Positions 12,565-38,910 of a DNA stretch of 64,000 bases are shown piece after piece. The translations under genes were made by a program, and so were the position numbers. The number at the start of each line of letters is the position of its first letter. Positions within the stretch are counted from its first letter, which is position 1. The stretch lies in NCBI RefSeq assembly GCF_056712565.1, contig NZ_CM160072.1; one strand, written 5' to 3'. Below the pieces are notes generated by a model, which made no database searches, was not told where the DNA came from, and saw only the letters and a list, made by a program, of their open reading frames with translations.

Positions 12565-12703
12565 TTATCCCCCAGGAAAAATTGGTTAATAACCAGTGAC
12601 ATAATTACCGTGCAAGGCACCATACTGAACACTGGAAAAGATGTTCACGATACGCTGACTTGCGGCAAAATAACCAGGAAAAATCCAGGTATTTCCTCAC
12701 GTT

Positions 12704-14065
<1,362 letters not shown>

Positions 14066-16319: not shown

Positions 16320-16631
16320 TTATCGATTATTTTGCCCCGCAGACTGTGCGCGCTTTGACGCGTCAGGCACCAGACGATAAAACGTTTCGCCCGGCCTGGT
16401 CATGCTGAGTTCATTACGCGCACGCTCTTCGAGCGCCTCCTGGCCGCCATTGAGATCGTCAATTTCGGCAAAAAGCTGATCGTTTCGCGCTTTAAGTTTC
16501 GCGTTTGTAGCTTGCTGTGCCGCCACATCATTATTGACGCGAGTATAGTCATGTATACCGTTCTTACCGAACCACAGCGAATACTGTAGCCAGACCAGAA
16601 TAGCCAGCAACAGCAGCGTTAGTTTACCCAT
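16320..16631 (-). CDS. ftsB: Cell division protein FtsB
   Basis: 103-aa ORF with N-terminal TM helix and coiled coil ([25 protein letters not shown]). Confidence 0.9.
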
Positions 16632-26604: not shown

Positions 26605-26970
26605 ATGATGTCCACCACGTTATTTAAAGATTTCACCTTCGAAGCCGCTCACCGCTTGCCGCACGTCCCACAAGGGCATAAATGTGGTCGCCTGCACGGG
26701 CATTCCTTTATGGTGCGACTGGAAATTACCGGGGAAGTCGATCCGCATACGGGCTGGATTATCGATTTCGCTGAACTGAAAGCGGCGTTTAAACCAACTT
26801 ATGAGCGCCTCGATCACCATTATCTCAATGATATTCCTGGTCTGGAAAACCCAACCAGCGAAGTTTTAGCAAAATGGATTTGGGATCAGGTTAAACCCGT
26901 TGTGCCGCTGTTAAGTGCGGTGATGGTAAAAGAAACCTGCACCGCAGGTTGTATCTATCGCGGCGAATGA
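26605..26970 (+). CDS. queD: 6-carboxy-5,6,7,8-tetrahydropterin synthase
   Basis: Start set at [35 protein letters not shown]... (121 aa); the track ORF extends 28 codons further upstream. Confidence 0.9.
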
Positions 26971-27047
26971 TAAGAGTGTGTCGGCGGTCAATTTCCCTTA
27001 AGTAACGCTATGTTAGGGTGTTGTGTTCTGGATATCTGGGGCATGAC

Positions 27048-28319
27048 ATGGAAGACGACTGCGACATTATTATTATTGGTGCCGGTATTGCTGGCACCGC
27101 TTGCGCGTTACGCTGCGCGCGAGCGGGTTTATCCGTTCTGTTACTGGAACGAGCGGAGATTCCCGGCAGCAAAAATCTTTCCGGCGGGCGGCTATACACC
27201 CATGCGCTCGCGGAACTCCTCCCGCAATTTCACCTGACCGCGCCCCTTGAACGACGCATCACTCACGAAAGTCTTTCTCTGTTAACGCCAGATGGCGCAA
27301 CGACGTTTTCCAGCTTACAGCCCGGCGGTGAATCCTGGAGTGTATTACGTGCACGATTCGATCCGTGGCTGGTTGCCGAAGCCGAAAAAGAAGGTGTCGA
27401 ATGCATCCCCGGTGCGACGGTAGATGCACTGTATGAAGAAAACGGCAGGGTGTGTGGTGTCATTTGTGGTGACGATATTCTTCGCGCCCGTTATGTGGTG
27501 CTGGCAGAAGGTGCCAACAGCGTCCTCGCGGAACGCCACGGGTTAGTGACTCGTCCTGCTGGCGAAGCGATGGCATTGGGGATCAAAGAAGTGCTGACGC
27601 TGGAACCATCCGCTATTGAAGAACGTTTTCATCTGGAGAATAACGAAGGCGCAGCGTTGTTGTTCAGCGGCGGGATCTGTGATGACTTACCCGGCGGCGC
27701 ATTTCTTTATACTAATCAACAAACGCTCTCGTTAGGGATTGTTTGCCCGCTCTCCTCCCTTACGCAAAGTCGTGTTCCGGCAAGCGAGCTGCTGGCTCGC
27801 TTTAAAACGCATCCGGCAGTGCGCCCGCTTATCAAAAACACGGAATCACTGGAGTATGGTGCGCATCTGGTGCCAGAAGGTGGCCTGCGCAGTATGCCGG
27901 TGCAATACGCCGGTAACGGCTGGCTGCTGGTGGGCGATGCGTTGCGCAGTTGCGTCAATACCGGAATTTCCGTGCGCGGTATGGATATGGCGCTAACTGG
28001 CGCGCAGGCGGCGGCACAAACGCTGATAAGCGCCTGCCAGCACCGCGAGCCGCAAAATCTGTTTCCGCTTTATCATCACAACGTAGAGCGCAGCCTGCTG
28101 TGGGATGTTCTACAGCGTTATCAGCATGTTCCGGCGCTTTTGCAACGCCCTGGCTGGTATCGGGTGTGGTCTGGGTTAATGCAGGATATTTCCCGTGATT
28201 TATGGGATCAGGGGAATACACCTGTTCCACCGCTGCGCCAGTTGCTCTGGCGTCATTTACGTCGTCACGGCTTGTGGCATCTGACGGGCGATGTTATCAA
28301 GAGTCTGCGATGTCTGTAG
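27048..28319 (+). CDS. ygcN: FixC-like FAD-dependent oxidoreductase (electron-transfer flavoprotein-quinone oxidoreductase family)
   Basis: Start at MEDDCDIIIIGAGIAGTACALRCARAG (FAD dinucleotide-binding motif), 423 aa. Confidence 0.85.
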   Translation: MEDDCDIIIIGAGIAGTACALRCARAGLSVLLLERAEIPGSKNLSGGRLYTHALAELLPQFHLTAPLERRITHESLSLLTPDGATTFSSLQPGGESWSVLRARFDPWLVAEAEKEGVECIPGATVDALYEENGRVCGVICGDDILRARYVVLAEGANSVLAERHGLVTRPAGEAMALGIKEVLTLEPSAIEERFHLENNEGAALLFSGGICDDLPGGAFLYTNQQTLSLGIVCPLSSLTQSRVPASELLARFKTHPAVRPLIKNTESLEYGAHLVPEGGLRSMPVQYAGNGWLLVGDALRSCVNTGISVRGMDMALTGAQAAAQTLISACQHREPQNLFPLYHHNVERSLLWDVLQRYQHVPALLQRPGWYRVWSGLMQDISRDLWDQGNTPVPPLRQLLWRHLRRHGLWHLTGDVIKSLRCL

Positions 28320-28570
28320 CCCGTAATCTCTGGCGCGCTGCCGATGCGCCGCACATTGTTCCAGCTGACTCCGTTGAGCGCCAGACGGCACAACGGTTGA
28401 TTAACGCCTGTCCAGCAGGTCTTTTTTCGCTCACACCTGAAGGTGGCTTACGTGTTGATTATCACGGCTGCCTGGAGTGTGGCACCTGCCGTTTGCTGTG
28501 CGACGAATCAACACTACAACAGTGGCGCTATCCGCCTTCCGGATTCGGCATCACCTACCGCTTTGGATAA
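28310..28570 (+). CDS. ygcO: FixX-like ferredoxin
   Basis: 86-aa ORF beginning MSVARNLWRA with Cys cluster (CLECGTCRLLCDE); start overlaps ygcN stop. Confidence 0.8.
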   Translation: MSVARNLWRAADAPHIVPADSVERQTAQRLINACPAGLFSLTPEGGLRVDYHGCLECGTCRLLCDESTLQQWRYPPSGFGITYRFG

Positions 28571-28586
28571 ATAATAAGGATAATTT

Positions 28587-29162
28587 ATGCCCCTCTTACA
28601 CCTGCTCCGCCAGAATCCGGTGATTGCTGCCGTTAAAGATAATGCCAGCCTGCAACTGGCAATCGACTCTGAATGCCAGTTTATTTCCGTGTTGTACGGC
28701 AATATCTGCACCATTAGTAATATCGTTAAAAAGATTAAGAACGCCGGGAAATATGCTTTTATTCATGTTGATTTGCTGGAAGGCGCGTCAAATAAAGAAG
28801 TGGTGATTCAGTTTTTGAAACTGGTAACCGAGGCGGACGGAATTATCAGTACCAAAGCCTCAATGCTGAAAGCAGCAAGAGCGGAAGGTTTTTTCTGTAT
28901 TCATCGACTGTTTATTGTTGATTCGATTTCGTTTCACAACATTGATAAGCAAGTTGCGCAATCGAATCCGGATTGTATTGAGATCCTGCCAGGCTGCATG
29001 CCTAAAGTGCTGGGCTGGGTGACGGAGAAAATCCGCCAACCGCTGATTGCTGGCGGGCTGGTGTGCGATGAAGAAGATGCGCGTAATGCGATTAACGCGG
29101 GTGTTGTGGCGCTTTCCACCACGAATACTGGGGTCTGGACGTTAGCGAAAAAATTGCTTTGA
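28587..29162 (+). CDS. ygcP: GlpP-like putative RNA-binding antiterminator
   Basis: 191-aa ORF (MPLLHLLRQNPVIAAVKDNASLQLAIDSECQ...) matching the K-12 YgcP position; GlpP-family assignment is from memory of the annotation. Confidence 0.75.
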   Translation: MPLLHLLRQNPVIAAVKDNASLQLAIDSECQFISVLYGNICTISNIVKKIKNAGKYAFIHVDLLEGASNKEVVIQFLKLVTEADGIISTKASMLKAARAEGFFCIHRLFIVDSISFHNIDKQVAQSNPDCIEILPGCMPKVLGWVTEKIRQPLIAGGLVCDEEDARNAINAGVVALSTTNTGVWTLAKKLL

Positions 29163-29197
29163 CGGGATAATCGTAACAAGTTGAATTTGGTGTGATT

Positions 29198-29270
29198 TGT
29201 AGGCTGCACGCCACATCCGACATTCAGCGCCTGATGCGACGCTTGACGCGTCTTATCAGGCCTACAAGTC
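29198..29270. repeat. REP/BIME-type repetitive extragenic palindromic element(s)
   Basis: Characteristic E. coli REP sequence ...gcctgatgcgacgcttgacgcgtcttatcaggcctacaag between the convergent ygcP and ygcQ. Coordinates approximate. Confidence 0.6.
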
Positions 29271-29309
29271 CCCAGCCCAGAACCATCGGCAGGATCATCC
29301 GGCAGCACG

Positions 29310-30170
29310 TTATTGGCAATCTGCGTGAATGTTTGTCACCAGTGCCTCCAGCACCACTTTCCAGTCATCAACCACGCCAACATCTGCCTGTGAAAATACC
29401 GCTGCACTGGCGTCATGATTAATCGCCACCACAAACTTGCTATTGCGTACGCCCGCCATTAACGCTGCTGCGCCGGAAGCGCCAACAACAATACACACCT
29501 CAGGTGCCAGCAGATGTCCGGAAATACCAATCACTTTTTCGGCATCAACGCCACCGTTCATCACTCGTGCCCGACTGTAGCCCACTTCGGCTCCCATCTT
29601 TTCTGCCAGCATAGCGATTTCCTGGTTATCTGCCTCTCCGCCCTGCCCCACCACCAGCACCCGTCTGGCCTCAGCTAATGGGTCACGGGTAACATTTTTC
29701 AGGTTTTCGACGCTGATAAGCCAGTCTGGAAGCGCGCCGGGAACAATGTTCAGTTGCTGCATCCCAGAGGGCAACGTGGCGTTTTTATCTGCTCCCGCCT
29801 GACGTGCCAGCGAAAGGCATAGCGGGCGTTTTTCTGTTTGCAGCGTCGCCGTCAACGCATTTCCCCAGTGGGATTTGCGCACGCTTACGGTTGGAATATC
29901 TAACGAAGTCACCTGGCAGATGCTTGCACCATGTAAACGCCAGGCCAGCCGGGTCGACAGTTCATCGCCAAACGCGCCCGGAGGAAAAAGGACAACCTCC
30001 GCAGGCGTTCGTTGCCACTGTTCCACCAGCGCATCCAGCACCTGTTCCGCAACCATCGGCTGTGGTTCTATTTGCCAATGCGTTAGTGTGCTGCCGCTGA
30101 AATCCTGCGCCGCCAGCCAGCCCGCCATTGCGGCATGTTCCTGATTTATTGTCACAATTGCGATATTCAT
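29310..30170 (-). CDS. ygcQ: Electron transfer flavoprotein alpha-subunit homolog (FixB-like)
   Basis: Start at MNIAIVTINQEHAAMAGW... (286 aa); ETF-alpha-like C-terminal FAD-binding region. Confidence 0.85.
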   Translation of the reverse strand: MNIAIVTINQEHAAMAGWLAAQDFSGSTLTHWQIEPQPMVAEQVLDALVEQWQRTPAEVVLFPPGAFGDELSTRLAWRLHGASICQVTSLDIPTVSVRKSHWGNALTATLQTEKRPLCLSLARQAGADKNATLPSGMQQLNIVPGALPDWLISVENLKNVTRDPLAEARRVLVVGQGGEADNQEIAMLAEKMGAEVGYSRARVMNGGVDAEKVIGISGHLLAPEVCIVVGASGAAALMAGVRNSKFVVAINHDASAAVFSQADVGVVDDWKVVLEALVTNIHADCQ

Positions 30171-30946
30171 GGCTGCATCCTTTGGCGTAAATAGTCCTGC
30201 CATAGCTTTTGCGCTTTTTCTGCAACCGTTTGCCCATCAATCAGCGCCGCTCTGCGTCGTTGCTCTGGCCTTGCCAGTTGCAGGCACTGTATCGCTGGCG
30301 CTTCCGCGGCAACAGTTTCGCGGGTAATCTCCGCTTTCCCCGCCGCCATTCGCTGGCGCATTCCCGGTACTGGCAAGGCCACTTCACCACACTGACGCAC
30401 GGCAATCACCGCAGGCAAGCGAACCCGGCAACAGCGCACCCCATGTTCAGTACGCTGTTCGAGGGTGATAAACGGTGCGTCGAGAGTAAAGCGCTCCACC
30501 TGGGTGAAGCAGGGCCAGACCAGCATTTCCGCCAGCAAAAATGGCGTTTGCCCATTCTGCCCTTCGCTGCTTTGGCAGCCAGTAATTATCAGATCCAGCG
30601 GATTCTGGTACTGCCATTCGGCAATATGGAGAGCGACAAATTCCGGCGCAAAGCGCAGATCTGCCGCCGTCTCCAGCAATACAGCTTCCTCAAACCCAAG
30701 TGCCATGAGATAGCGCAGCCAGTGCAACGCCCGTTCATCCCCCATGCTCAACGCGGTTAAAGACATCGGCGTACCGTTTTTTCTCTGCGCCAACAGCAGC
30801 GCGGCGGCAGCCTGTTCATCGGCACCGAGTAAACTTCGCAGAAGCGAAACATCCGGTCCGATATTACCCTGAGCCGCCGCCAGCCACTCTTTTTCCGCCA
30901 GCATCCCGGCATCCGGTTCGGCTTTAAACGCTAACAGTATGTTCAT
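30167..30946 (-). CDS. ygcR: Electron transfer flavoprotein beta-subunit homolog (FixA-like)
   Basis: Start at MNILLAFKAEPDAGML... (259 aa); overlaps ygcQ start. Confidence 0.85.
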   Translation of the reverse strand: MNILLAFKAEPDAGMLAEKEWLAAAQGNIGPDVSLLRSLLGADEQAAAALLLAQRKNGTPMSLTALSMGDERALHWLRYLMALGFEEAVLLETAADLRFAPEFVALHIAEWQYQNPLDLIITGCQSSEGQNGQTPFLLAEMLVWPCFTQVERFTLDAPFITLEQRTEHGVRCCRVRLPAVIAVRQCGEVALPVPGMRQRMAAGKAEITRETVAAEAPAIQCLQLARPEQRRRAALIDGQTVAEKAQKLWQDYLRQRMQP

Positions 30947-32261
30947 TCGCACCTCCTGCATTTCCCGCCGCCACCAGCGGGAGTGCTTTGGTTTCTGGTG
31001 CCCATAGCCAGGTCACAACAAAACCAACCAACAACACTGCCGCCAGGAGCAATAAGGTGGCTTGCATTCCCCACTGTGCCAGCACCCACGGCAGCAGGCC
31101 AGTACTTACCGCCGCCCCCAACCGACTCATGGCGGTGGCAAAACCGACGCCCAGCGAGCGAATGTCAGTAGGAAAACTTTCCGCAGGCAAAATGCCCACC
31201 AGATTACTGACTGCCGAAATGGTGGTGCTGAAGAGAACAAAAAGCAGCAGCGTTAATGAACTGCCGGAAGGCAAACAGGCCATTACTACCAGCGTTGCCG
31301 TTAGCAGCAAAAAACTTCCCAGTAAAAATCTGCGATGCGCTAACAAGTGGGTCAACACTAACCCTAATAACGCGCCAACAATTAACAACGCATTAAGCAT
31401 CAGGCTGGCAGTCAGCGCATCTTCCAGACCAATAGTTTGGGCGATGGTCGGCAGCCAGGTATAAATCACAAACCATGGGATTACGAGGCAGACAAAGAAG
31501 ACGCTGTTAAACGCCGTGCGCCGCCAGTAGCGCGAAGAGAACAAGGTTTTGATGTGTTTATGGGTCGCCGTTGCCACTTCATCGCCCAGTAAAACATGGG
31601 GACCAAAGTAGCGATGCACGATAGCGTGAGCTTCTGCAAAACGCCCCTGGCGCAGTAGCCAGCGTGGCGATTCTGGCGTTCCCCAGCGTAATAACGTAAT
31701 CAACAACGCGGGCAGAGCTGCCGATGCCAGCAGCCAGCGCCAGGCCTCCGGGCTTTCGCTAATAAAGTGATGTCCGGCAATACTTGCCAACACATAGCCT
31801 ACGGTCCACACCACGCTGAACGCGCCCAGCAAAACACCGCGATGGCGGCGCGGAGAAAATTCAGCCAGCAAAGTGTGACCTACTGAGTAATCGCCTCCCA
31901 GACCAATGCCGATCAAAATGCGCAATCCAATAAGATGCTCTGGCGTGGTGGCAAAAAATTGCAAGAACGAAGCGAGCGTAATCAGCATAAAACTGAAGGT
32001 GAAGATTTTTTGCCGTCCGATATGGTCGGAGATCCACCCCAAAACCAGGCTGCCAAGAAACAAACCAAGTAACGCCGAGCCGCCGATCATCCCCGCCATA
32101 AACGGCGTCAGTTGCATGGCGGGCGTAAGCTGAATAATGGCGTAACCAATAACGCCGAGGACATAACCGTCGGTCAGGTGTGCGCCGAAAGTGAGCGCAG
32201 CAATTCGACAGTGAAAACGGTTAAGCGGTAAATCATCCATTCGCACCGGTGAAGTGTTCAT
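30924..32261 (-). CDS. ygcS: MFS-family transporter
   Basis: Start at MNTSPVRMDDLPLNRFHCRIAALTFGAH... (445 aa); 12-TM MFS-like hydrophobic profile. Confidence 0.85.
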   Translation of the reverse strand: MNTSPVRMDDLPLNRFHCRIAALTFGAHLTDGYVLGVIGYAIIQLTPAMQLTPFMAGMIGGSALLGLFLGSLVLGWISDHIGRQKIFTFSFMLITLASFLQFFATTPEHLIGLRILIGIGLGGDYSVGHTLLAEFSPRRHRGVLLGAFSVVWTVGYVLASIAGHHFISESPEAWRWLLASAALPALLITLLRWGTPESPRWLLRQGRFAEAHAIVHRYFGPHVLLGDEVATATHKHIKTLFSSRYWRRTAFNSVFFVCLVIPWFVIYTWLPTIAQTIGLEDALTASLMLNALLIVGALLGLVLTHLLAHRRFLLGSFLLLTATLVVMACLPSGSSLTLLLFVLFSTTISAVSNLVGILPAESFPTDIRSLGVGFATAMSRLGAAVSTGLLPWVLAQWGMQATLLLLAAVLLVGFVVTWLWAPETKALPLVAAGNAGGANEHTVSV

Positions 32262-32354
32262 CTTTACCCCTTCATTGTCCGGTAATAAGAACGGCTTCTC
32301 GCCTGAGAAGCCGAAAAGGCAACGCCCCGTCATCGCGGAACGCTGCCTGACACA

Positions 32355-33809
32355 TTATTTTTCAATCGGATAGATAGTACCCGTGTTCATAATGCCATTA
32401 GGATCGAACTGCTTTTTCAGCCCTTCCAGCAACGCCCACGCGCTGCCGTGTTCCAGTTTGCTCCAGTGAACGCGATGTTTACCGATACCGTGGTGGTGCA
32501 CCATCGAACCGCCGAGACGAATGGTTTCTTCGCAGATGATTTTGTTGAGCGGATTGTGGTACTTGTCGATTTCCTCTTCCGGCTTACAGTCAACGACGTT
32601 GTAGTCGTAGACGAAGTACATGTTGGTGCCGTTCTGATAGCTATGAGAGGAGTGACCGCCCAGCATGGTGATGTCGTCGGCGTGCGGGAACTCGGTACGA
32701 ATACGGTTAATAACGCTTTCGTAGATTTCGTGAATGCAGCTCCAGCAGCCGGACACTTCGGTGGTAAAGCCCATGTTGCCGGTTTTGAGGATCTGCACAC
32801 GTTCGGCAGCCACTTTATCCGGTCCCCAGTTCAGGTTGTTAAACCAGGTTTCGATCAGCTTGCTGTCCACGCGCTGGCACTGCGGGTAGCGCGCCACGAT
32901 TTCAGCAATCCCTTCACCCGTCGCCTTCGCAATGCGAGGGTTACCTTCAGCCATAAAGATCAGCACGCATTTGCCGTCGGCAAAATGGGTGAAGTGTTGG
33001 GTGCCATCTTCAGCATCATACAAACGAGCAATCGACGGACGATACCCTTCCACCATGATTTCACGCAGGATGTTGAAGCCGGTTTTCATGTCTTCCAGCA
33101 CATAGCCATAGAAGAGATTGTTTTCCGGCGTAAATTTGAAGATTTTCACTGTGACTTCAGTGATATAGCACAGTGCACCTTCGTTGCCGATGATGATATG
33201 ACGAATGTCCGGGCCAGCCGCGCGACGTGGCACGTTTTTAATGCGTGTGACGGTGCCATCTGCCAGCACCGCTTCCAGACCAACGACCATATCCTCGATT
33301 GCGCCGTAGAGTGTGGAAAACTGCCCGATACTGCGGGTCGCCACCAGGCCGCCCATCTGCGCCAGCGGCTTTGACTGCGGAGAATGCCCCGTGGTGTAAC
33401 CTTTTTCACGCAACGCGTTTTCCAGCACCTCCAGCGGAACGCCACATTGCGCCGTGGCCTGCATATTCTCAATATCAATATTAATGATTTGATTCATGGC
33501 GGAGCCGTCGAGCACCACCGAGTTTTCCACAACGGTTTCCAGCCCACCTTCGGTAGCGGAAGCACCGGTACGCGGCACACCATTAATTTTGTGCGCATTC
33601 ATAAAATTCAGCACACGGGATACTTGTTCTGTGGAACCGAGTTTTACGACCGCTGCCGGAATCGGCAAAGTATAAATGCCATGAATATCCGGAAATTTAC
33701 GAAAACGGTCAATACTGTTTTTCTTTAATACTGTTTCATCGGTAATTACGCGATCTGCACCAACAATTTCCTTTAGCTGGTCGACAATCGCTGCGCGAGA
33801 TAAAGACAT
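32355..33809 (-). CDS. ygcU: FAD-linked oxidoreductase (alkyl-DHAP-synthase/glycolate-oxidase-like FAD-binding PCMH domain)
   Basis: 484-aa ORF MSLSRAAIVDQLKEIVGADRVITDETVLKK... Confidence 0.85.
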   Translation of the reverse strand: MSLSRAAIVDQLKEIVGADRVITDETVLKKNSIDRFRKFPDIHGIYTLPIPAAVVKLGSTEQVSRVLNFMNAHKINGVPRTGASATEGGLETVVENSVVLDGSAMNQIINIDIENMQATAQCGVPLEVLENALREKGYTTGHSPQSKPLAQMGGLVATRSIGQFSTLYGAIEDMVVGLEAVLADGTVTRIKNVPRRAAGPDIRHIIIGNEGALCYITEVTVKIFKFTPENNLFYGYVLEDMKTGFNILREIMVEGYRPSIARLYDAEDGTQHFTHFADGKCVLIFMAEGNPRIAKATGEGIAEIVARYPQCQRVDSKLIETWFNNLNWGPDKVAAERVQILKTGNMGFTTEVSGCWSCIHEIYESVINRIRTEFPHADDITMLGGHSSHSYQNGTNMYFVYDYNVVDCKPEEEIDKYHNPLNKIICEETIRLGGSMVHHHGIGKHRVHWSKLEHGSAWALLEGLKKQFDPNGIMNTGTIYPIEK

Positions 33810-33878
33810 AGTAATTCCTTCCTGATAATAAAAATGGAATAATCATTAATAAGAGAAAACAGAAACCACCGTTATGGA

Positions 33879-34664
33879 TTAGCGCACTAAATAACCGCCA
33901 TCAACCACTAATAAATGTCCGTTGACATAATTCGATGCCGGACTTGCGAGGAATACGGCTGCGCCCATTAAATCCTGAGTATCGCCCCAACGGTTTGCCG
34001 GAATATAATCAAGAACGCGCTGGTTAGTTTCTGGATTACTACGGGTCGCCAGAGTGATATCGGTAGCGTAATATCCCGGGGAAATACCATTCACCTGAAT
34101 ATTATATTGACCTAATTCATCGCAATAGGCTTTGGTGAATCCGGCAAGAGCATGTTTAGTGGCAGAATAAGCCGGTGACCATTGACCACCTGAGTAAGAG
34201 AACAATGAACAGATATTAATGATTTTACCGCTTTTCTGCGGGATCATAATTTTTGCAGCTTCATAGCTTAACTCGAATGCGGCGGTAAGGTTCACGTCAA
34301 TCATCGGATCCCAGTCGGCACGCCCGAAGTCCAGCACCTTATTCAGCTTACATATACCGGCATTGTTAACCAGAATATCGACGGTACCGAAACGCTCACA
34401 GCAGGCAGCGATAATCTTCTGCGGTGCGCCTTCTGCGGTGATATCCACCTGCATGAAGTCCACTTCAACACCCTGTTTTTCAATCATTTCCTTTGTTTCG
34501 CCGTTATCTTTGACGAAACTTGGAATAAAGACATTTGCGCCAGCCTTGGCCAGCGCCATGGCAAATGCCTGGCCTAATCCGCTATTCCCGCCGGTAACAA
34601 TTGCTGTTTTACCTTTCAGGGAGAAAAAATCCATTGAGAACGCATTGAGAGATTCGATTGACAT
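33879..34664 (-). CDS. ygcW: Short-chain dehydrogenase/reductase
   Basis: Start at MSIESLNAFSMDFFSLKGKTAIVTGGNSGLGQ (TGxxxGxG SDR motif), 261 aa; GGAG RBS upstream. Confidence 0.85.
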   Translation of the reverse strand: MSIESLNAFSMDFFSLKGKTAIVTGGNSGLGQAFAMALAKAGANVFIPSFVKDNGETKEMIEKQGVEVDFMQVDITAEGAPQKIIAACCERFGTVDILVNNAGICKLNKVLDFGRADWDPMIDVNLTAAFELSYEAAKIMIPQKSGKIINICSLFSYSGGQWSPAYSATKHALAGFTKAYCDELGQYNIQVNGISPGYYATDITLATRSNPETNQRVLDYIPANRWGDTQDLMGAAVFLASPASNYVNGHLLVVDGGYLVR

Positions 34665-34688
34665 AGTTAGCTCCAATTTCCGTAAGGC

Positions 34689-34736
34689 AAAAAAAAAGAA
34701 AGGTAACTTCCCCCGCGAGAGGGAAGTTACCTTTCT
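34689..34736 (-). terminator. Intrinsic-terminator-like hairpin plus U9 tract in the ygcW leader (candidate attenuator)
   Basis: Perfect 14–16 bp inverted repeat (aaaggtaacttccc / gggaagttaccttt, 8-nt loop) preceded on the + strand by nine A residues, which gives a hairpin followed by U9 on the minus strand about 25 nt upstream of the ygcW start codon. Confidence 0.5.
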
Positions 34737-34910
34737 CATTATCTCTGGTAACTGGAGATAATTTTTAGCATAAGGGCATAACTGCTAATGTGATCGTAAT
34801 CACAGAGTGATGTTCGTATTATCAAATAGTTTTAAAAAGCAGAAGCGTGATTACTCTCACACAACACCTTTTCTTTCCATGTTATTTCTTATTGCAATTA
34901 CTAGAGACCT

Positions 34911-34958
34911 GAGAAAAGTAATCCACCTGAAAGGGCGGCTTACTTTTCTCTTTTTTTT
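34911..34958 (+). terminator. Intrinsic-terminator-like hairpin plus T8 tract in the yqcE leader (candidate attenuator)
   Basis: 11-bp inverted repeat (gagaaaagtaa ... ttacttttctc, 18-nt loop) followed by eight T residues on the + strand, ending about 25 nt before the yqcE ATG. Confidence 0.45.
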
Positions 34959-34982
34959 GTCTATTACAAATGGGAATACGAT

Positions 34983-36260
34983 ATGCAACACAACTCATAT
35001 CGCCGTTGGATAACCCTCGCGATAATTAGTTTTAGCGGCGGCGTTAGTTTCGACCTGGCTTATTTACGTTATATTTATCAAATTCCCATGGCAAAATTTA
35101 TGGGATTCAGCAATACCGAGATAGGTTTAATAATGAGTACCTTTGGTATTGCGGCCATTATTTTCTATGCCCCTAGCGGCGTTATTGCCGATAAATTTTC
35201 ACACCGCAAAATGATTACTTCCGCGATGATCATTACCGGATTACTGGGCCTGATAATGGCAACATATCCACCACTGTGGGTAATGCTCTGTATTCAGGTC
35301 GCCTTTGCGATAACGACGATTTTAATGCTGTGGTCGGTGTCGATTAAAGCCGCATCGTTGCTGGGCGATCATAGCGAGCAAGGGAAAATTATGGGCTGGA
35401 TGGAAGGGCTGCGCGGCGTCGGTGTAATGTCGCTGGCGGTGTTTACCATGTGGGTCTTTTCTCGCTTTGCACCGGATGACAGCGCCAGCCTGAAAACGGT
35501 CATTATTATCTATAGTGTGGTTTACATTCTGCTGGGCATTTTGTGTTGGTTTTTTGTTAGCGATAACAACAATCTGCGCAGTGCCAATAACGAAGAAAAA
35601 CAGTCATTCCAGCTTAGCGACATCCTGGCCGTTTTGCGCATCAGCACCACCTGGTATTGCAGCATGGTGATTTTTGGTGTCTTCACCATCTACGCCATTC
35701 TGAGTTACTCCACCAACTATCTGACCGAAATGTACGGCATGTCACTGGTGGCAGCGAGCTACATGGGGATTGTGATCAACAAAATCTTCCGCGCGTTATG
35801 CGGCCCACTTGGCGGCATTATCACCACCTACAGCAAAGTGAAATCCCCTACCCGCGTGGTCCAAATCCTTTCCATCATCGGTTTGCTGGCATTGACAGCC
35901 CTGCTCGTTACGAACTCTAACCCGCAATCGGTCGCGATGGGGATTGGCTTGATTTTATTACTGGGATTCACCTGTTACGCCTCACGCGGGCTGTATTGGG
36001 CCTGCCCTGGCGAAGCGAGAACACCGTCTTACATTATGGGCACCACGGTAGGTATTTGTTCGGTGATTGGATTCCTGCCGGATGTCTTCGTTTACCCGAT
36101 TATCGGCTACTGGCAAGACACCCTGCCCGCTGCAGAAGCCTACCGCAACATGTGGCTAATGGGCATGGCGGCGCTTGGCATGGTGATCATCTTTACCTTT
36201 TTGCTGTTCCAAAAAATTCGTACTGCTGATAGCGCCCCCGCAATGGCTAGCAGCAAGTAA
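34983..36260 (+). CDS. yqcE: MFS-family transporter
   Basis: 425-aa multi-TM ORF MQHNSYRRWITLAIISFSGGVSFDLAY... Confidence 0.85.
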   Translation: MQHNSYRRWITLAIISFSGGVSFDLAYLRYIYQIPMAKFMGFSNTEIGLIMSTFGIAAIIFYAPSGVIADKFSHRKMITSAMIITGLLGLIMATYPPLWVMLCIQVAFAITTILMLWSVSIKAASLLGDHSEQGKIMGWMEGLRGVGVMSLAVFTMWVFSRFAPDDSASLKTVIIIYSVVYILLGILCWFFVSDNNNLRSANNEEKQSFQLSDILAVLRISTTWYCSMVIFGVFTIYAILSYSTNYLTEMYGMSLVAASYMGIVINKIFRALCGPLGGIITTYSKVKSPTRVVQILSIIGLLALTALLVTNSNPQSVAMGIGLILLLGFTCYASRGLYWACPGEARTPSYIMGTTVGICSVIGFLPDVFVYPIIGYWQDTLPAAEAYRNMWLMGMAALGMVIIFTFLLFQKIRTADSAPAMASSK

Positions 36261-36286
36261 GCCAGGAAAATTACAGGAGAAAAATC

Positions 36287-37765
36287 ATGTCGAAAAAATA
36301 CATCATAGGGATTGATGGCGGAAGTCAGAGCACAAAAGTGGTGATGTACGATCTGGAAGGTAATGTGGTTTGCGAAGGCAAAGGCTTATTGCAGCCGATG
36401 CACACGCCAGATGCCGATACCGCAGAACATCCTGACGACGATTTATGGGCATCATTATGCTTTGCCGGCCACGATTTGATGAGCCAGTTTGCCGGGAATA
36501 AAGAAGATATTGTCGGCATTGGCCTGGGATCCATCCGTTGCTGCCGTGCGTTATTGAAAGCCGATGGCACGCCTGCTGCGCCGTTGATTAGCTGGCAGGA
36601 TGCACGCGTAACGCGTCCCTACGAACACACTAATCCTGACGTGGCATATGTCACCTCTTTTTCGGGTTATCTGACGCACCGTTTAACGGGCGAATTTAAA
36701 GATAATATCGCCAACTATTTTGGTCAGTGGCCGGTGGATTATAAGACCTGGGCATGGAGCGAAGATGCCGCGGTAATGGAAAAGTTTAATATCCCCCGCC
36801 AGATGCTTTTTGACGTGCAAATGCCGGGCACCATTCTTGGGCATATCACACCACAAGCTGCGCTGGCGACACATTTCCCGGCTGGGCTGCCGGTTGTTTG
36901 TACCACCAGTGATAAACCGGTAGAAGCTCTGGGAGCCGGGTTACTGGATGATGAAACGGCGGTAATTTCTCTTGGCACCTATATCGCGTTAATGATGAAC
37001 GGCAAAGCACTGCCGAAAGATCCGGTCGCGTACTGGCCGATTATGTCTTCTATTCCGCAAACATTGCTGTATGAAGGTTACGGTATTCGCAAAGGCATGT
37101 GGACGGTGAGCTGGCTGCGCGACATGTTAGGCGAGTCGTTAATTCAGGATGCCAAAGCACAGGATCTTTCACCGGAAGATTTGCTCAACAAAAAAGCGTC
37201 TTGCGTGCCACCTGGTTGTAATGGGCTGATGACGGTGCTGGACTGGCTGACCAATCCGTGGGAACCGTACAAACGCGGAATTATGATCGGCTTTGATTCC
37301 AGTATGGATTACGCATGGATATATCGTTCGATACTGGAAAGCGTGGCGCTGACGCTGAAGAATAATTACGACAATATGTGTCATGAAATGAATCACTTTG
37401 CAAAGCATGTGATCATTACTGGCGGCGGTTCGAACAGCGATCTGTTTATGCAGATTTTTGCCGACGTGTTCAACCTTCCGGCACGCCGTAACGCCATTAA
37501 CGGTTGTGCAAGTCTGGGGGCAGCGATTAATACGGCGGTAGGTCTGGGGCTATACCCGGATTACGCAACGGCTGTCGACAAAATGGTTCGCGTGAAAGAT
37601 ATCTTTATGCCTGTTGAGAACAATGCCAAACGCTACGACGCGATGAATAAAGGCATTTTCAAGGAGTTAACCAAACATACTGATGTAATCCTGAAAAAAT
37701 CGTATGAAGTGATGCATGGGGAATTGGGGAATGCGGATTCGATCCAGAGCTGGTCGAATGCGTAA
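36287..37765 (+). CDS. ygcE: FGGY-family carbohydrate kinase
   Basis: 492-aa ORF MSKKYIIGIDGGSQSTKVVMYDLEG... with FGGY kinase N-terminal motif. Confidence 0.85.
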   Translation: MSKKYIIGIDGGSQSTKVVMYDLEGNVVCEGKGLLQPMHTPDADTAEHPDDDLWASLCFAGHDLMSQFAGNKEDIVGIGLGSIRCCRALLKADGTPAAPLISWQDARVTRPYEHTNPDVAYVTSFSGYLTHRLTGEFKDNIANYFGQWPVDYKTWAWSEDAAVMEKFNIPRQMLFDVQMPGTILGHITPQAALATHFPAGLPVVCTTSDKPVEALGAGLLDDETAVISLGTYIALMMNGKALPKDPVAYWPIMSSIPQTLLYEGYGIRKGMWTVSWLRDMLGESLIQDAKAQDLSPEDLLNKKASCVPPGCNGLMTVLDWLTNPWEPYKRGIMIGFDSSMDYAWIYRSILESVALTLKNNYDNMCHEMNHFAKHVIITGGGSNSDLFMQIFADVFNLPARRNAINGCASLGAAINTAVGLGLYPDYATAVDKMVRVKDIFMPVENNAKRYDAMNKGIFKELTKHTDVILKKSYEVMHGELGNADSIQSWSNA

Positions 37766-37810
37766 GTGAGGAAGGCCGGGCGGGAAACTGCCCGGCATGA
37801 ACATACCTGA

Positions 37811-37900
37811 ATGGTTATCCCCGCTGACGCGGGGAACTCATATCCGGTTTTTGCTGGTGGGCCGCGCCGTTCGGTTTATCCCCGCTGGTGCGGGGAACTC
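37811..37900 (-). CRISPR. Minimal orphan type I-E CRISPR array: two repeats and one 32-nt spacer
   Basis: Repeat A at 37872..37900 (cggtttatccccgctggtgcggggaactc) is the reverse complement of the E. coli type I-E repeat GAGTTCCCCGCGCCAGCGGGGATAAACCG with one mismatch. Repeat B at 37811..37839 (atggttatccccgctgacgcggggaactc) is a degenerate copy with 4 mismatches, as expected for a terminal repeat. Spacer 37840..37871: atatccggtttttgctggtgggccgcgccgtt. Location between ygcE and queE matches the K-12 CRISPR-II position. Confidence 0.85.
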
Positions 37901-38230
37901 TCTAAACATAACCTATTATTAATTAATTATTTTTTAAGCCAGTCACAATCTACCAACTTTACAGTATCACACAAACAACACATCCATTATGTTAAAGAGC
38001 ACTTAATCCATTGATTAAAAAGATAAATATTTAAAATAACTCTATTCAAACTAAAATCTACCAAACTTTACCGCAATAATTTTCACTCCAGCGAAAAATT
38101 AACGCCACAGAATTTGTAGAGAATGATAATGATTAGTCCAGAATGGGCAAAATGGAGGTTTTTCAGAGGCGACAAAGAATATAAATGAGTAGAAGTCTTT
38201 ACAGATTCCACCCATTTATAACGCTTATAA
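37901..38230 (-). promoter_or_regulatory. AT-rich putative CRISPR leader adjacent to the less-degenerate repeat
   Basis: About 330 bp of very AT-rich non-coding sequence abutting repeat A, on the side where a type I-E leader is expected. Extent not defined from sequence. Confidence 0.5.
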
Positions 38231-38238
38231 ATGTTTAA

Positions 38239-38910
38239 TCAGGCAATATTCAAATATTTATGTGTCTGCATCGACAAACGCCAGTTGCGCGCAATGCAGG
38301 TATCGATACATAAACGCGTAGCATCTTCCTTCTGGCTAATTGGCTGAAGTGCAATGACTCGCGGTTTATCATCGGTCAGCGTCGCCAGCAATTCGTCCAG
38401 TGCTTCAATATCACGTACGCGTCCCACTGGATGCTTGATTTCGTTGGCTCGCTCCAGGGCTTGCGACAATACTTCATAGCCGCCGCGCATGTTCAGCTTT
38501 GGCGATACGGTAACCCAGGTATTCGGTGTGCAGCGTACCTCATGAGTACCACTGGTTTCGATCTGGCAGCTAAAACCGTTCTTTTCGAGCAGGTCAGTCA
38601 GTGGCAGCAAATCATGAATGCAAGGCTCACCACCCGTAATCACCACGTGACGCGCGGTGTATCCCTGACGGCCAATGACAGCCAGCAAATCTTCACTGCT
38701 CGCCGCCCCCCACTTATCACTCTCTTTGGTCTTCGCCAGAATGCTGAAAAGGGAGACTTCCCGATCCTCAAGCTTTTCCCAGGTGTGTTTGGTGTCGCAC
38801 CAGGCACAGCCAACCGGACATCCCTGTAAACGAATAAAAATGGCGGGGACGCCGGTAAAGTAACCCTCACCTTGCAGGGTCTGGAACATCTCGTTAATCG
38901 GGTACTGCAT
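38239..38910 (-). CDS. queE: 7-carboxy-7-deazaguanine synthase (radical SAM)
   Basis: 223-aa ORF MQYPINEMFQTLQGEGYFTGVPAIFIRLQGCPVGCAWCDTKHTW... with radical-SAM Cys motif. Confidence 0.9.
   Translation of the reverse strand: MQYPINEMFQTLQGEGYFTGVPAIFIRLQGCPVGCAWCDTKHTWEKLEDREVSLFSILAKTKESDKWGAASSEDLLAVIGRQGYTARHVVITGGEPCIHDLLPLTDLLEKNGFSCQIETSGTHEVRCTPNTWVTVSPKLNMRGGYEVLSQALERANEIKHPVGRVRDIEALDELLATLTDDKPRVIALQPISQKEDATRLCIDTCIARNWRLSMQTHKYLNIA

Follow-up and report, generated by a model that had tools for sequence, protein, structure and literature searches.

In Escherichia coli the divergent genes ygcW and yqcE of the ygc island are separated by a spacer of 318 bp, and within it each gene is preceded, on its own coding strand, by a hairpin followed by a run of U residues. 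Why should both transcription units begin with what looks like an intrinsic terminator, and is there a factor that overcomes it? The question arose from a stretch of 64,000 nucleotides of contig NZ_CM160072.1 (RefSeq assembly GCF_056712565.1; hereafter the window, to which all positions refer). For this an initial annotation had proposed that YgcP, encoded in the same island and labelled in RefSeq only as 'putative anti-terminator regulatory protein', causes antitermination at both leaders. The present analysis supports that model in silico. Public transcript data show that termination is the default at both leader hairpins, and a two-state leader switch responding to YgcP is, in our judgement, the probable explanation of both elements. 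The hairpins and the short RNAs are already in public datasets, unexplained; the motif and the proposed link to YgcP are new.

Folding of each full leader gave a terminator (Table 1). On the ygcW side the stem has 19 pairs (17 Watson–Crick and two G-U) and a 4-nt loop, with a folding energy of −34.2 kcal/mol and z = −7.15 against shuffled sequences. A perfect stem of 14–16 bp with a U9 tract had been described here; the tract is as described, but the stem is longer and includes the two G-U pairs. On the yqcE side the expected 11 contiguous pairs and U8 tract were found, and five upper pairs make this a 16-bp stem (about −20 kcal/mol, z = −3.5). The distance from the end of each U-tract to the start codon is 24 nt, against an original estimate of about 25 nt. 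In a sequence search, positions 34000–35600 were 100% identical to E. coli strain ZJ3920 and 95.6% identical to K-12; between the K-12 spacer and the window both leader elements are identical and there are zero indels in the spacer.

Transcripts of this spacer have been mapped by differential RNA sequencing (dRNA-seq; Romero et al. 2014, Mol Microbiol 94:963; PMC4681348), which gave two class I transcription start sites (TSSs) and two short RNAs: ecr2774, of 73 nt, from the strand of ygcW, and ecr2775, of 63 nt, from that of yqcE, the latter confirmed by northern blot. These were filed as candidate small RNAs (sRNAs), 'simple stem-loop, perhaps REP-like' (PMC4681348). By their coordinates they are identical to the two leader elements; they were described as short stem-loop transcripts and were tied neither to attenuation, nor to each other, nor to YgcP. 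In public data the short leader RNAs are abundant in both LB and M9. The coordinates, which refer to U00096.2, were converted through the annotation of NC_000913.3 and a genome-version shift that we take to be 1978 bp from the coordinates of eno and omrA. This shift was internally consistent, as 3′ ends fell at the U-tracts and TSSs 7 nt past −10 elements. After conversion the TSSs lay at 34753–34757 (−) and 34896–34897 (+), upstream and not downstream of the hairpins, and the 3′ ends of ecr2774 and ecr2775 at or barely beyond the U-tracts.

Term-seq in LB (Adams et al. 2021; PMC7815308, supplementary file 3) gave one 3′ end 38 nt upstream of ygcW (40,640 reads; Rho score 0.50, 'No'; intrinsic score 15.8) and another 36 nt upstream of yqcE (1,557 reads; Rho score 0.61, 'No'; intrinsic score 11.4), with no regulatory element noted at either (PMC7815308). 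As the TSSs lie upstream of the hairpins and the 3′ ends at them, most transcripts in LB stop there. Thus the placement of the hairpins as leader terminators between promoter and gene, and the short terminated, Rho-independent RNAs that go with it, were borne out by existing data.

The two leaders are, judging from their sequences, paralogous copies of one RNA motif. A scan based on YgcP, with one genome per species, gave 64 loci. A core of ygcP, ygcU, ygcW, yqcE and ygcE was conserved in Enterobacterales (Escherichia, Citrobacter, Klebsiella, Enterobacter, Yokenella, Buttiauxella, Serratia, Rahnella, Ewingella, Budvicia, Limnobaculum, Pantoea, Erwinia and Izhakiella) and in Firmicutes (Listeria, Bacillus and Thalassobacillus). 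In all 52 of the 52 enterobacterial divergent ygcW/yqcE loci, one locus of Limnobaculum eriocheiris (L034, see below) apart, an element of ~70 nt was present in both leaders (104 copies, 89 of them distinct, from ~50 species). It reads (N1-5)[G/A]UUACY-(N0-3)-AGAGA-N2-4-GAGAAARGUAAY-variable stem-loop-UURCYUUUCUC-U7-9. Within box 1 (AGAGA), across the 89 sequences, the three positions G-A-G of the five are invariant and the flanking A's at least 70% conserved. The RNAalifold consensus of the leaders is the terminator, 98.2% of whose cells are paired in the alignment based on a covariance model (CM). All 88 of 88 distinct copies fold as a single hairpin of 16–20 bp (−18.9 to −33.5 kcal/mol) followed by U6–9, with 64 different upper parts. 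The conservation in orthologous loci and the shared motif upstream of both hairpins, both raised as checks at the outset, were therefore found, with covariation.

A covariance model, R1, was built from the enterobacterial ygc leaders only. In the window it found two forward-strand copies (E ~1e-14), both in this spacer, at 34686–34755 on the ygcW side (81 bits) and on the yqcE side (79 bits); there were zero other forward-strand copies in these 64 kb, and the weaker matches were the opposite strand of the same two hairpins. With blastn the ygcW element was found at one or two places (median two, the second not inspected) in each E. coli genome carrying it. Rfam cmscan of positions 33500–36000 at E ≤ 10 gave chance matches only (e.g. 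rliE, which scored 26 bits where the gathering cut-off is 90) and no match to a curated riboswitch aptamer in the leaders. Further copies were found by R1 in the ygc clusters of Firmicutes: in Thalassobacillus directly upstream of ygcW (61 bits), in Bacillus sp. DNRA2 before ygcU and before ygcW, and in five species of Listeria ahead of the ygcU-ygcP-yqcE-ygcW-ygcE operon. ygcP adjoins the leaders in all 52 enterobacterial spacer loci and in nine Firmicute loci, as fetched with YgcP. Identity of 99% or more is reached by the 72 nt of the ygcW leader (34686–34757) in 4531 of 5063 complete E. coli genomes and by the coding DNA of ygcP in no more than 1035 of 5115, so that this non-coding leader is more strongly constrained than the genes around it.

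The part of the motif upstream of the hairpin is complementary to RGUAAY in the 5′ arm of the terminator, and the two can form a 6-bp helix, P1. The mapped TSSs lie just upstream of its 5′ segment, by 5 nt for ygcW and 1 nt for yqcE. Pairing was counted on 88 distinct sequences in a CM-realigned alignment, A4: 99.1% of P1 cells are paired, and when the partner was slid by 1–3 columns this fell to 15–62%. Three of the six pairs show compensatory change (pair 1, G-C 62 and A-U 25; pair 4, A-U 87 and G-C 1; pair 6, U-A 64 and C-G 20), and G-U wobbles occur at two other pairs (20 of 528 cells). The change can be followed through 5′ segment, 5′ arm and 3′ arm, which read GUUACC, GGUAAC and GUUACC in E. 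coli ygcW, AUUACU, AGUAAU and CUUACU in E. coli yqcE, and GUUGCC, GGCGAC and GUCGCC in an uncultured Enterobacteriaceae metagenome-assembled genome (L031). Copies from Listeria and Bacillus have GUUGCU as 5′ segment and AGCGAC as its partner, which is compensatory relative to GUUACU/AGUAAC.

That P1 is not a mere by-product of the terminator is indicated by two features of the alignment. The partner of P1 position 1 (column 34 of A4) lies outside the consensus terminator pairs, being opposite a C in copies of the E. coli yqcE type, and nevertheless shows covariation with the 5′ segment. In copies of the Serratia, Rahnella and Pantoea types, UAAC of the 5′ arm stands opposite a non-complementary 3′ arm, in an internal loop, yet it does not vary and can still pair with the 5′ segment. 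When the first 30–38 nt were folded, the minimum free energy structure was P1 with a purine-rich loop of 14–18 nt in 11 of 11 leaders. P1 is thus a candidate antiterminator, which on the folding model would form first in the nascent RNA.

The switch can be pictured as follows. Transcripts start at divergent promoters with CRP sites, and their first ~70 nt would be the two-state switch. By default, as the transcript maps show, the intrinsic terminator halts polymerase with 24 nt still to go to the start codon and releases ecr2774 or ecr2775. Under inducing conditions YgcP, presumably loaded with a phosphorylated metabolite, would bind the nascent P1, with its [G/A]UUACY : RGUAAY helix and the purine-rich loop AGAGA-N-GAGAAA. 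By analogy with GlpK and glycerol-3-phosphate (G3P), this metabolite is probably made by YgcE, an FGGY kinase. Since the conserved P1 helix takes in the first 12 nt of the terminator 5′ arm, P1 locked in this way would block the terminator, and polymerase would read on into ygcWUSRQ and yqcE-ygcE.

The candidate for the trans-acting factor belongs, as the initial annotation had it, to the GlpP family. YgcP matches Pfam PF04309 ('glycerol-3-phosphate responsive antiterminator', G3P_antiterm) over its full length (1–173 of 173, E 1.6e-62) and the GlpP-family structures 3KTS (PDB, E 1e-27) and 1VKF; against NCBIfam it gave zero families at 1e-10. In Bacillus subtilis GlpP causes antitermination in the leaders of glpD, glpFK and glpTQ (Holmberg & Rutberg 1991/1992 and Glatz et al. 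1996/1998, as cited in PMC9604022 and PMC10573289). The 5′ untranslated region (5′ UTR) of glpD, a proven GlpP target, was taken from Table S4 of PMC9604022 and contains ...ACGGUCCUGAGAUGAGGAGAGACCACAGC...GCUGUUGUGGUCUCUUUUUCU. Its layout is GGUC(C)-UGAGAUGAGGAGA-GACC, with a loop rich in GAGA..GAG and the GACC inside the terminator 5′ arm, and the nascent RNA folds into an analogous hairpin. The motif upstream of the ygc hairpins thus resembles the B. subtilis GlpP target.

Five clostridial loci were then examined in which a GlpP homologue stands beside a gene resembling G3P oxidase or dehydrogenase (GlpA/GlpO-like), this assignment resting on sub-cut-off NCBIfam matches for L066 and L067 and on DAO/Fer2_BFD Pfam domains for L069, L070 and L071. 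Each of the five loci has a leader built on this plan, for example UUGC-GAGAGAGAUGAGUCAA-GCAA, and in all five the top R1 match fell on the GlpA/GlpO-like leader, with E values over 60 kb of 2.4e-4, 3.7e-3, 5.2e-3, 0.015 and 0.28. A sixth locus, without glp genes, gave zero R1 matches. Box 1 is common to the ygc leaders, the Firmicute leaders and the glp-type leaders. From the R1 matches and the shared design, therefore, the ygc leaders seem to belong to a larger family of leaders under GlpP control, for which there is no Rfam model. By analogy, the ygc switch apparently follows the same logic as GlpP antitermination, with homologous RNA, and a protein-bound hairpin at the 5′ end could in addition make the mRNA more stable, an effect that has been reported for GlpP and glpD. 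It is possible, although we stop a little short of calling it probable, that the ygc leaders and the Firmicute glp leaders form one ancient, widespread and uncatalogued RNA family read by PF04309 proteins, a 'GlpP-responsive antiterminator' in which a P1 helix with GAGA/GAG boxes overlaps a terminator, and that YgcP switches both arms of the island in response to a phosphorylated sugar or polyol other than G3P.

The likeness to the B. subtilis system extends to the Pfam family of the regulator, the intrinsic terminator in the 5′ UTR as target, the linkage of regulator and target, and a leader in which a short 5′ segment can pair with the 5′ arm of the terminator across a purine stretch containing GAGA and GAG. 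The ygc system differs in its host, a proteobacterium, and in its genes, which are not glycerol genes and encode a short-chain dehydrogenase/reductase (SDR), an FAD (flavin adenine dinucleotide) oxidase, an electron transfer flavoprotein (ETF), an FGGY kinase and two major facilitator superfamily (MFS) transporters. It has two inverted paralogous leaders in one 318 bp spacer, each behind a CRP site with class II-like spacing. P1 lies at the very 5′ terminus of the transcript, an effector other than G3P is probable, and the system is known from sequence and transcript maps.

BglG of the E. coli bgl operon and SacY of B. subtilis sac offer a second comparison. There too a weak 5′ hairpin, stabilised by a protein, excludes a stronger terminator in the leader of a sugar operon. 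Those proteins, however, have the CAT-PRD fold (co-antiterminator and phosphotransferase regulation domains) and not the TIM-barrel-like fold of PF04309, and they are controlled by phosphorylation through the phosphotransferase system rather than by ligand binding. Their ribonucleic antiterminator (RAT) sequence is also different from the ygc leader motif. No CAT/PRD gene is annotated in the island, and none was found among the seven island proteins scanned against NCBIfam. The conserved single-stranded purine boxes of the ygc leaders, with GAG/AGA ahead of or inside the terminator 5′ arm, are reminiscent of the recognition of NAG/GAG repeats by the B. subtilis attenuation proteins HutP and TRAP, but both proteins are unrelated to YgcP, the repeats differ in number and spacing, and TRAP promotes termination.

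Several observations weigh against a YgcP-dependent switch. P1 alone is worth −1.4 to −6.7 kcal/mol and the terminators −19 to −34, so P1 could win only with a stabilising factor. Most of the P1 covariation comes from a few changes specific to a lineage or a paralogue, so the statistics overstate independence, and the 5′ segment mimics the terminator 3′ arm, so part of this covariation is common with the terminator. The glp-type R1 matches are weak (15–29 bits), and the likeness to glpD is architectural because the RNA site of GlpP in B. subtilis lacks a nucleotide-level definition in the literature read. The Term-seq ends correspond to 34702 (−) and 34947 (+), 3–6 nt inside the descending arms and not in the U-tracts, perhaps because the 3′ ends are trimmed back into the A-U-rich base of the stem or because U-runs distort the mapping. 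The ygcP gene itself is without such a leader. Finally, no published link of YgcP to leader RNAs, by binding or by read-through, was found in the literature searches.

Other explanations of the two hairpins must be set against this. The leaders could be constitutive attenuators, and/or ecr2774 and ecr2775 could be trans-acting sRNAs from CRP-controlled promoters, with YgcP playing no role and residual read-through giving the operons a low basal level. The short RNAs are indeed abundant in LB and M9, they are listed as candidate sRNAs by Romero et al., and their ends, a terminator hairpin and U-tail, resemble those of Hfq-dependent sRNAs. This seems unlikely all the same, as conservation falls on the 5′ segment and its ability to pair with the terminator arm rather than on an exposed seed, and as across phyla the element always stands directly before the first ygc or glp gene and beside a gene of the GlpP family; a function in trans would, moreover, be compatible with attenuation in cis. 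Alternatively P1 and the terminator, which are mutually exclusive and enclose a conserved loop sequence, could form a riboswitch-like device in which P1 and its purine loop sense a small molecule, another protein or the ribosome, and YgcP acts elsewhere. Very small aptamers exist, but here ~30 nt stand before the terminator 3′ arm, and they contain one helix of 6–7 bp and a variable loop of 14–18 nt with no further conserved structure. Too little RNA is conserved, and linkage to PF04309 genes is too strict, for a protein-independent riboswitch to be likely. As the leaders also resemble the protein-dependent glpD leader, give no Rfam match (33500–36000) and have no conserved open reading frame (ORF), we regard control of this kind as distinctly improbable.

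If the conserved sequence acted as DNA, GTTACY-N14-18-RGTAAC would be an operator for a repressor at +2 to +33 and the hairpins ordinary terminators or insulators. A palindrome past the TSS would also give symmetric 'covariation', and both H-NS and CRP bind the spacer. Such an operator is very hard to reconcile with a spacer whose length varies (3-nt insertions, 14–18 nt), which breaks the helical phasing for a dimeric DNA binder, with G-U wobbles (20/528 cells) that keep RNA pairing and break DNA symmetry, or with half-sites that change completely in Firmicutes while complementarity persists; annotation and family scans of the island proteins moreover gave zero genes for DNA-binding regulators in the island. 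Lastly, that the hairpins are repetitive extragenic palindromic (REP)-like repeats or chance structures of no regulatory role, in line with the label 'perhaps REP-like' from Romero et al., is scarcely credible: the window holds two forward-strand copies at one locus, blastn gave one or two places per E. coli genome (the second not inspected), and the elements, which are found in different orders and phyla, keep one orientation and one placement with respect to TSS and start codon. The YgcP-responsive switch is therefore preferred.

The positions of the leader parts, promoters and genes are collected in Table 1.

Table 1 Features of the ygcW–yqcE spacer and its genes, with positions in the window
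Feature	Position	Strand	Basis
ygcW leader element (ecr2774 RNA), complete ~70-nt motif from TSS cluster to end of U-tract	34686–34757	−	CM, dRNA-seq, Term-seq
P1 5′ strand (A)GUUACC, candidate antiterminator, pairs with GGUAAC(U) at 34725–34731	34747–34753	−	Folding, alignment A4
Box 1 AGAGA, in P1 loop	34742–34746	−	Conservation across 89 sequences
ygcW terminator hairpin; 5′ arm GAGAAAGGUAACUUCCCUC holds box 2 (GAGAAA) and P1 3′ strand GGUAAC (34726–34731)	34696–34737	−	Folding
U9 tract of ygcW terminator	34689–34697	−	Sequence
yqcE leader element (ecr2775 RNA), complete motif from TSS (34896/7) to end of U-tract	34894–34960	+	CM, dRNA-seq, northern, Term-seq
P1 5′ strand AUUACU, pairs with AGUAAU at 34917–34922	34897–34902	+	Folding, alignment A4
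Box 1 AGAGA	34903–34907	+	Conservation
yqcE terminator hairpin; 5′ arm GAGAAAAGUAAU holds box 2 and P1 3′ strand	34911–34950	+	Folding
U8 tract of yqcE terminator	34951–34958	+	Sequence
CRP site 1, TGTGATCGTAATCACA, perfect, centre ~41.5 bp upstream of ygcW TSS cluster	34789–34804		Sequence
CRP-like site 2, cGTGATTACTCTCACA, centre ~42.5 bp upstream of yqcE TSS; putative function	34846–34861		Sequence
Putative extended −10 TGcTAAAAA, ygcW promoter	34762–34770	−	Sequence and TSS position
Putative extended −10 TGtTATTTC, yqcE promoter	34880–34888	+	Sequence, TSS
ygcW, ATG at 34664, 261 aa	33879–34664	−	Annotation
ygcW-ygcU-ygcS-ygcR-ygcQ, downstream of ygcW leader	29310–34664	−	Annotation
yqcE, ATG at 34983	34983–36260	+	Annotation
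yqcE-ygcE, downstream of yqcE leader	34983–37765	+	Annotation
ygcP, GlpP-family putative antiterminator, proposed trans factor	28587–29162	+	PF04309

Both TSSs lie 7 nt downstream of an extended −10 element, and from the sequence each divergent promoter appears to have its own CRP site in class II-like geometry. For site 1, binding of CRP in vitro (Kd 1.7 nM), occupancy in vivo by chromatin immunoprecipitation sequencing in enterotoxigenic E. coli and a phylogenetic-footprinting prediction by PhyloScan have been reported. Site 2 is kept in nearly all orthologous spacers, as is cATGyTATT at the yqcE −10. RpoD holoenzyme and H-NS bind the spacer in the genomic SELEX (systematic evolution of ligands by exponential enrichment) table of Shimada et al. 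(K-12 map position 62.45), and silencing by H-NS may be a further layer of control. The DNA palindrome TTATCTC-N9-GAGATAA (34746–34768) extends over the −10 region and TSS of ygcW. It was considered as a second RNA hairpin and rejected, as the mapped TSS falls within it; it might, for instance, be a protein-binding site.

The ygcW leader contains an AUG at 34737–34739 (−) that shares the reading frame of the gene and has no convincing Shine–Dalgarno sequence. Because of it a mechanical ORF list gives ygcW 286 aa (33879–34739) and not the annotated 261. A leader peptide or alternative ygcW start at this AUG was rejected, as it is not conserved across species.

The island has the order queD / ygcN-O-P, ygcQ-R-S-U-W (reverse), yqcE-ygcE / queE, and the short or overlapping gaps suggest that ygcW-ygcU-ygcS-ygcR-ygcQ form one operon. 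This conserved catabolic island of ten genes is carried by ~94% of complete E. coli genomes and by many Enterobacterales. Annotation and family scans gave YgcW as a KduD-like SDR, YgcU as a GlcD-like FAD oxidase, YgcQR as an ETF, YgcE as an FGGY kinase and YgcN as a FixC-like FAD-dependent oxidoreductase, and the genes downstream of the leaders include the two MFS transporters. Family scans gave no identification of the substrate, although the set of enzymes suggests a polyol or a sugar acid. No functional study of the ygc island, of YgcP or of its target was found in literature searches with ygcP, ygcW/yqcE and other ygc genes. In the Enterobacteriaceae the island lies between queD and queE (26608–38910 in the window). 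In loci of the Serratia, Pantoea and Erwinia types (L035–L057) the order is rearranged, with ygcP beside ygcE, and ygcN, ygcO, ygcQ and ygcR are frequently absent; the conserved core is therefore ygcP-ygcU-ygcW-yqcE-ygcE.

Some spacers depart from the common arrangement. In Citrobacter youngae (L012, ~16325–16470) and Klebsiella spallanzanii (L013, ~12670–12815) a repeat of ~127 bp resembling the enterobacterial repetitive intergenic consensus lies between the yqcE terminator and the start codon, and the leader element is intact despite the insertion. In Limnobaculum eriocheiris (L034, 13856–13991) the spacer is 136 bp long and contains a single hairpin between A9 and T9, without promoters, CRP sites or either P1 segment; its sequence looks as if two inverted elements had fused into one bidirectional hairpin. 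The variable upper stem-loop differs between the ygcW-side and yqcE-side copies in most species; in L. allomyrinae (L038), Budvicia diplopodorum (L043) and Enterobacillus tribolii (L056) it is identical in both, suggesting gene conversion between the inverted paralogous elements.

A control system of this kind has not been described in E. coli. The proposed switch would account for two orphan abundant short RNAs of K-12, gives YgcP a concrete candidate RNA target and provides a covariance-supported RNA motif that is new to Rfam. It would carry GlpP-type antitermination from the Firmicutes to the Enterobacterales. If true, this would be the second ligand-controlled protein antitermination system in E. 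coli K-12, besides Bgl, and a screen with leader reporters would give a direct handle on the substrate or inducer of the ygc island.

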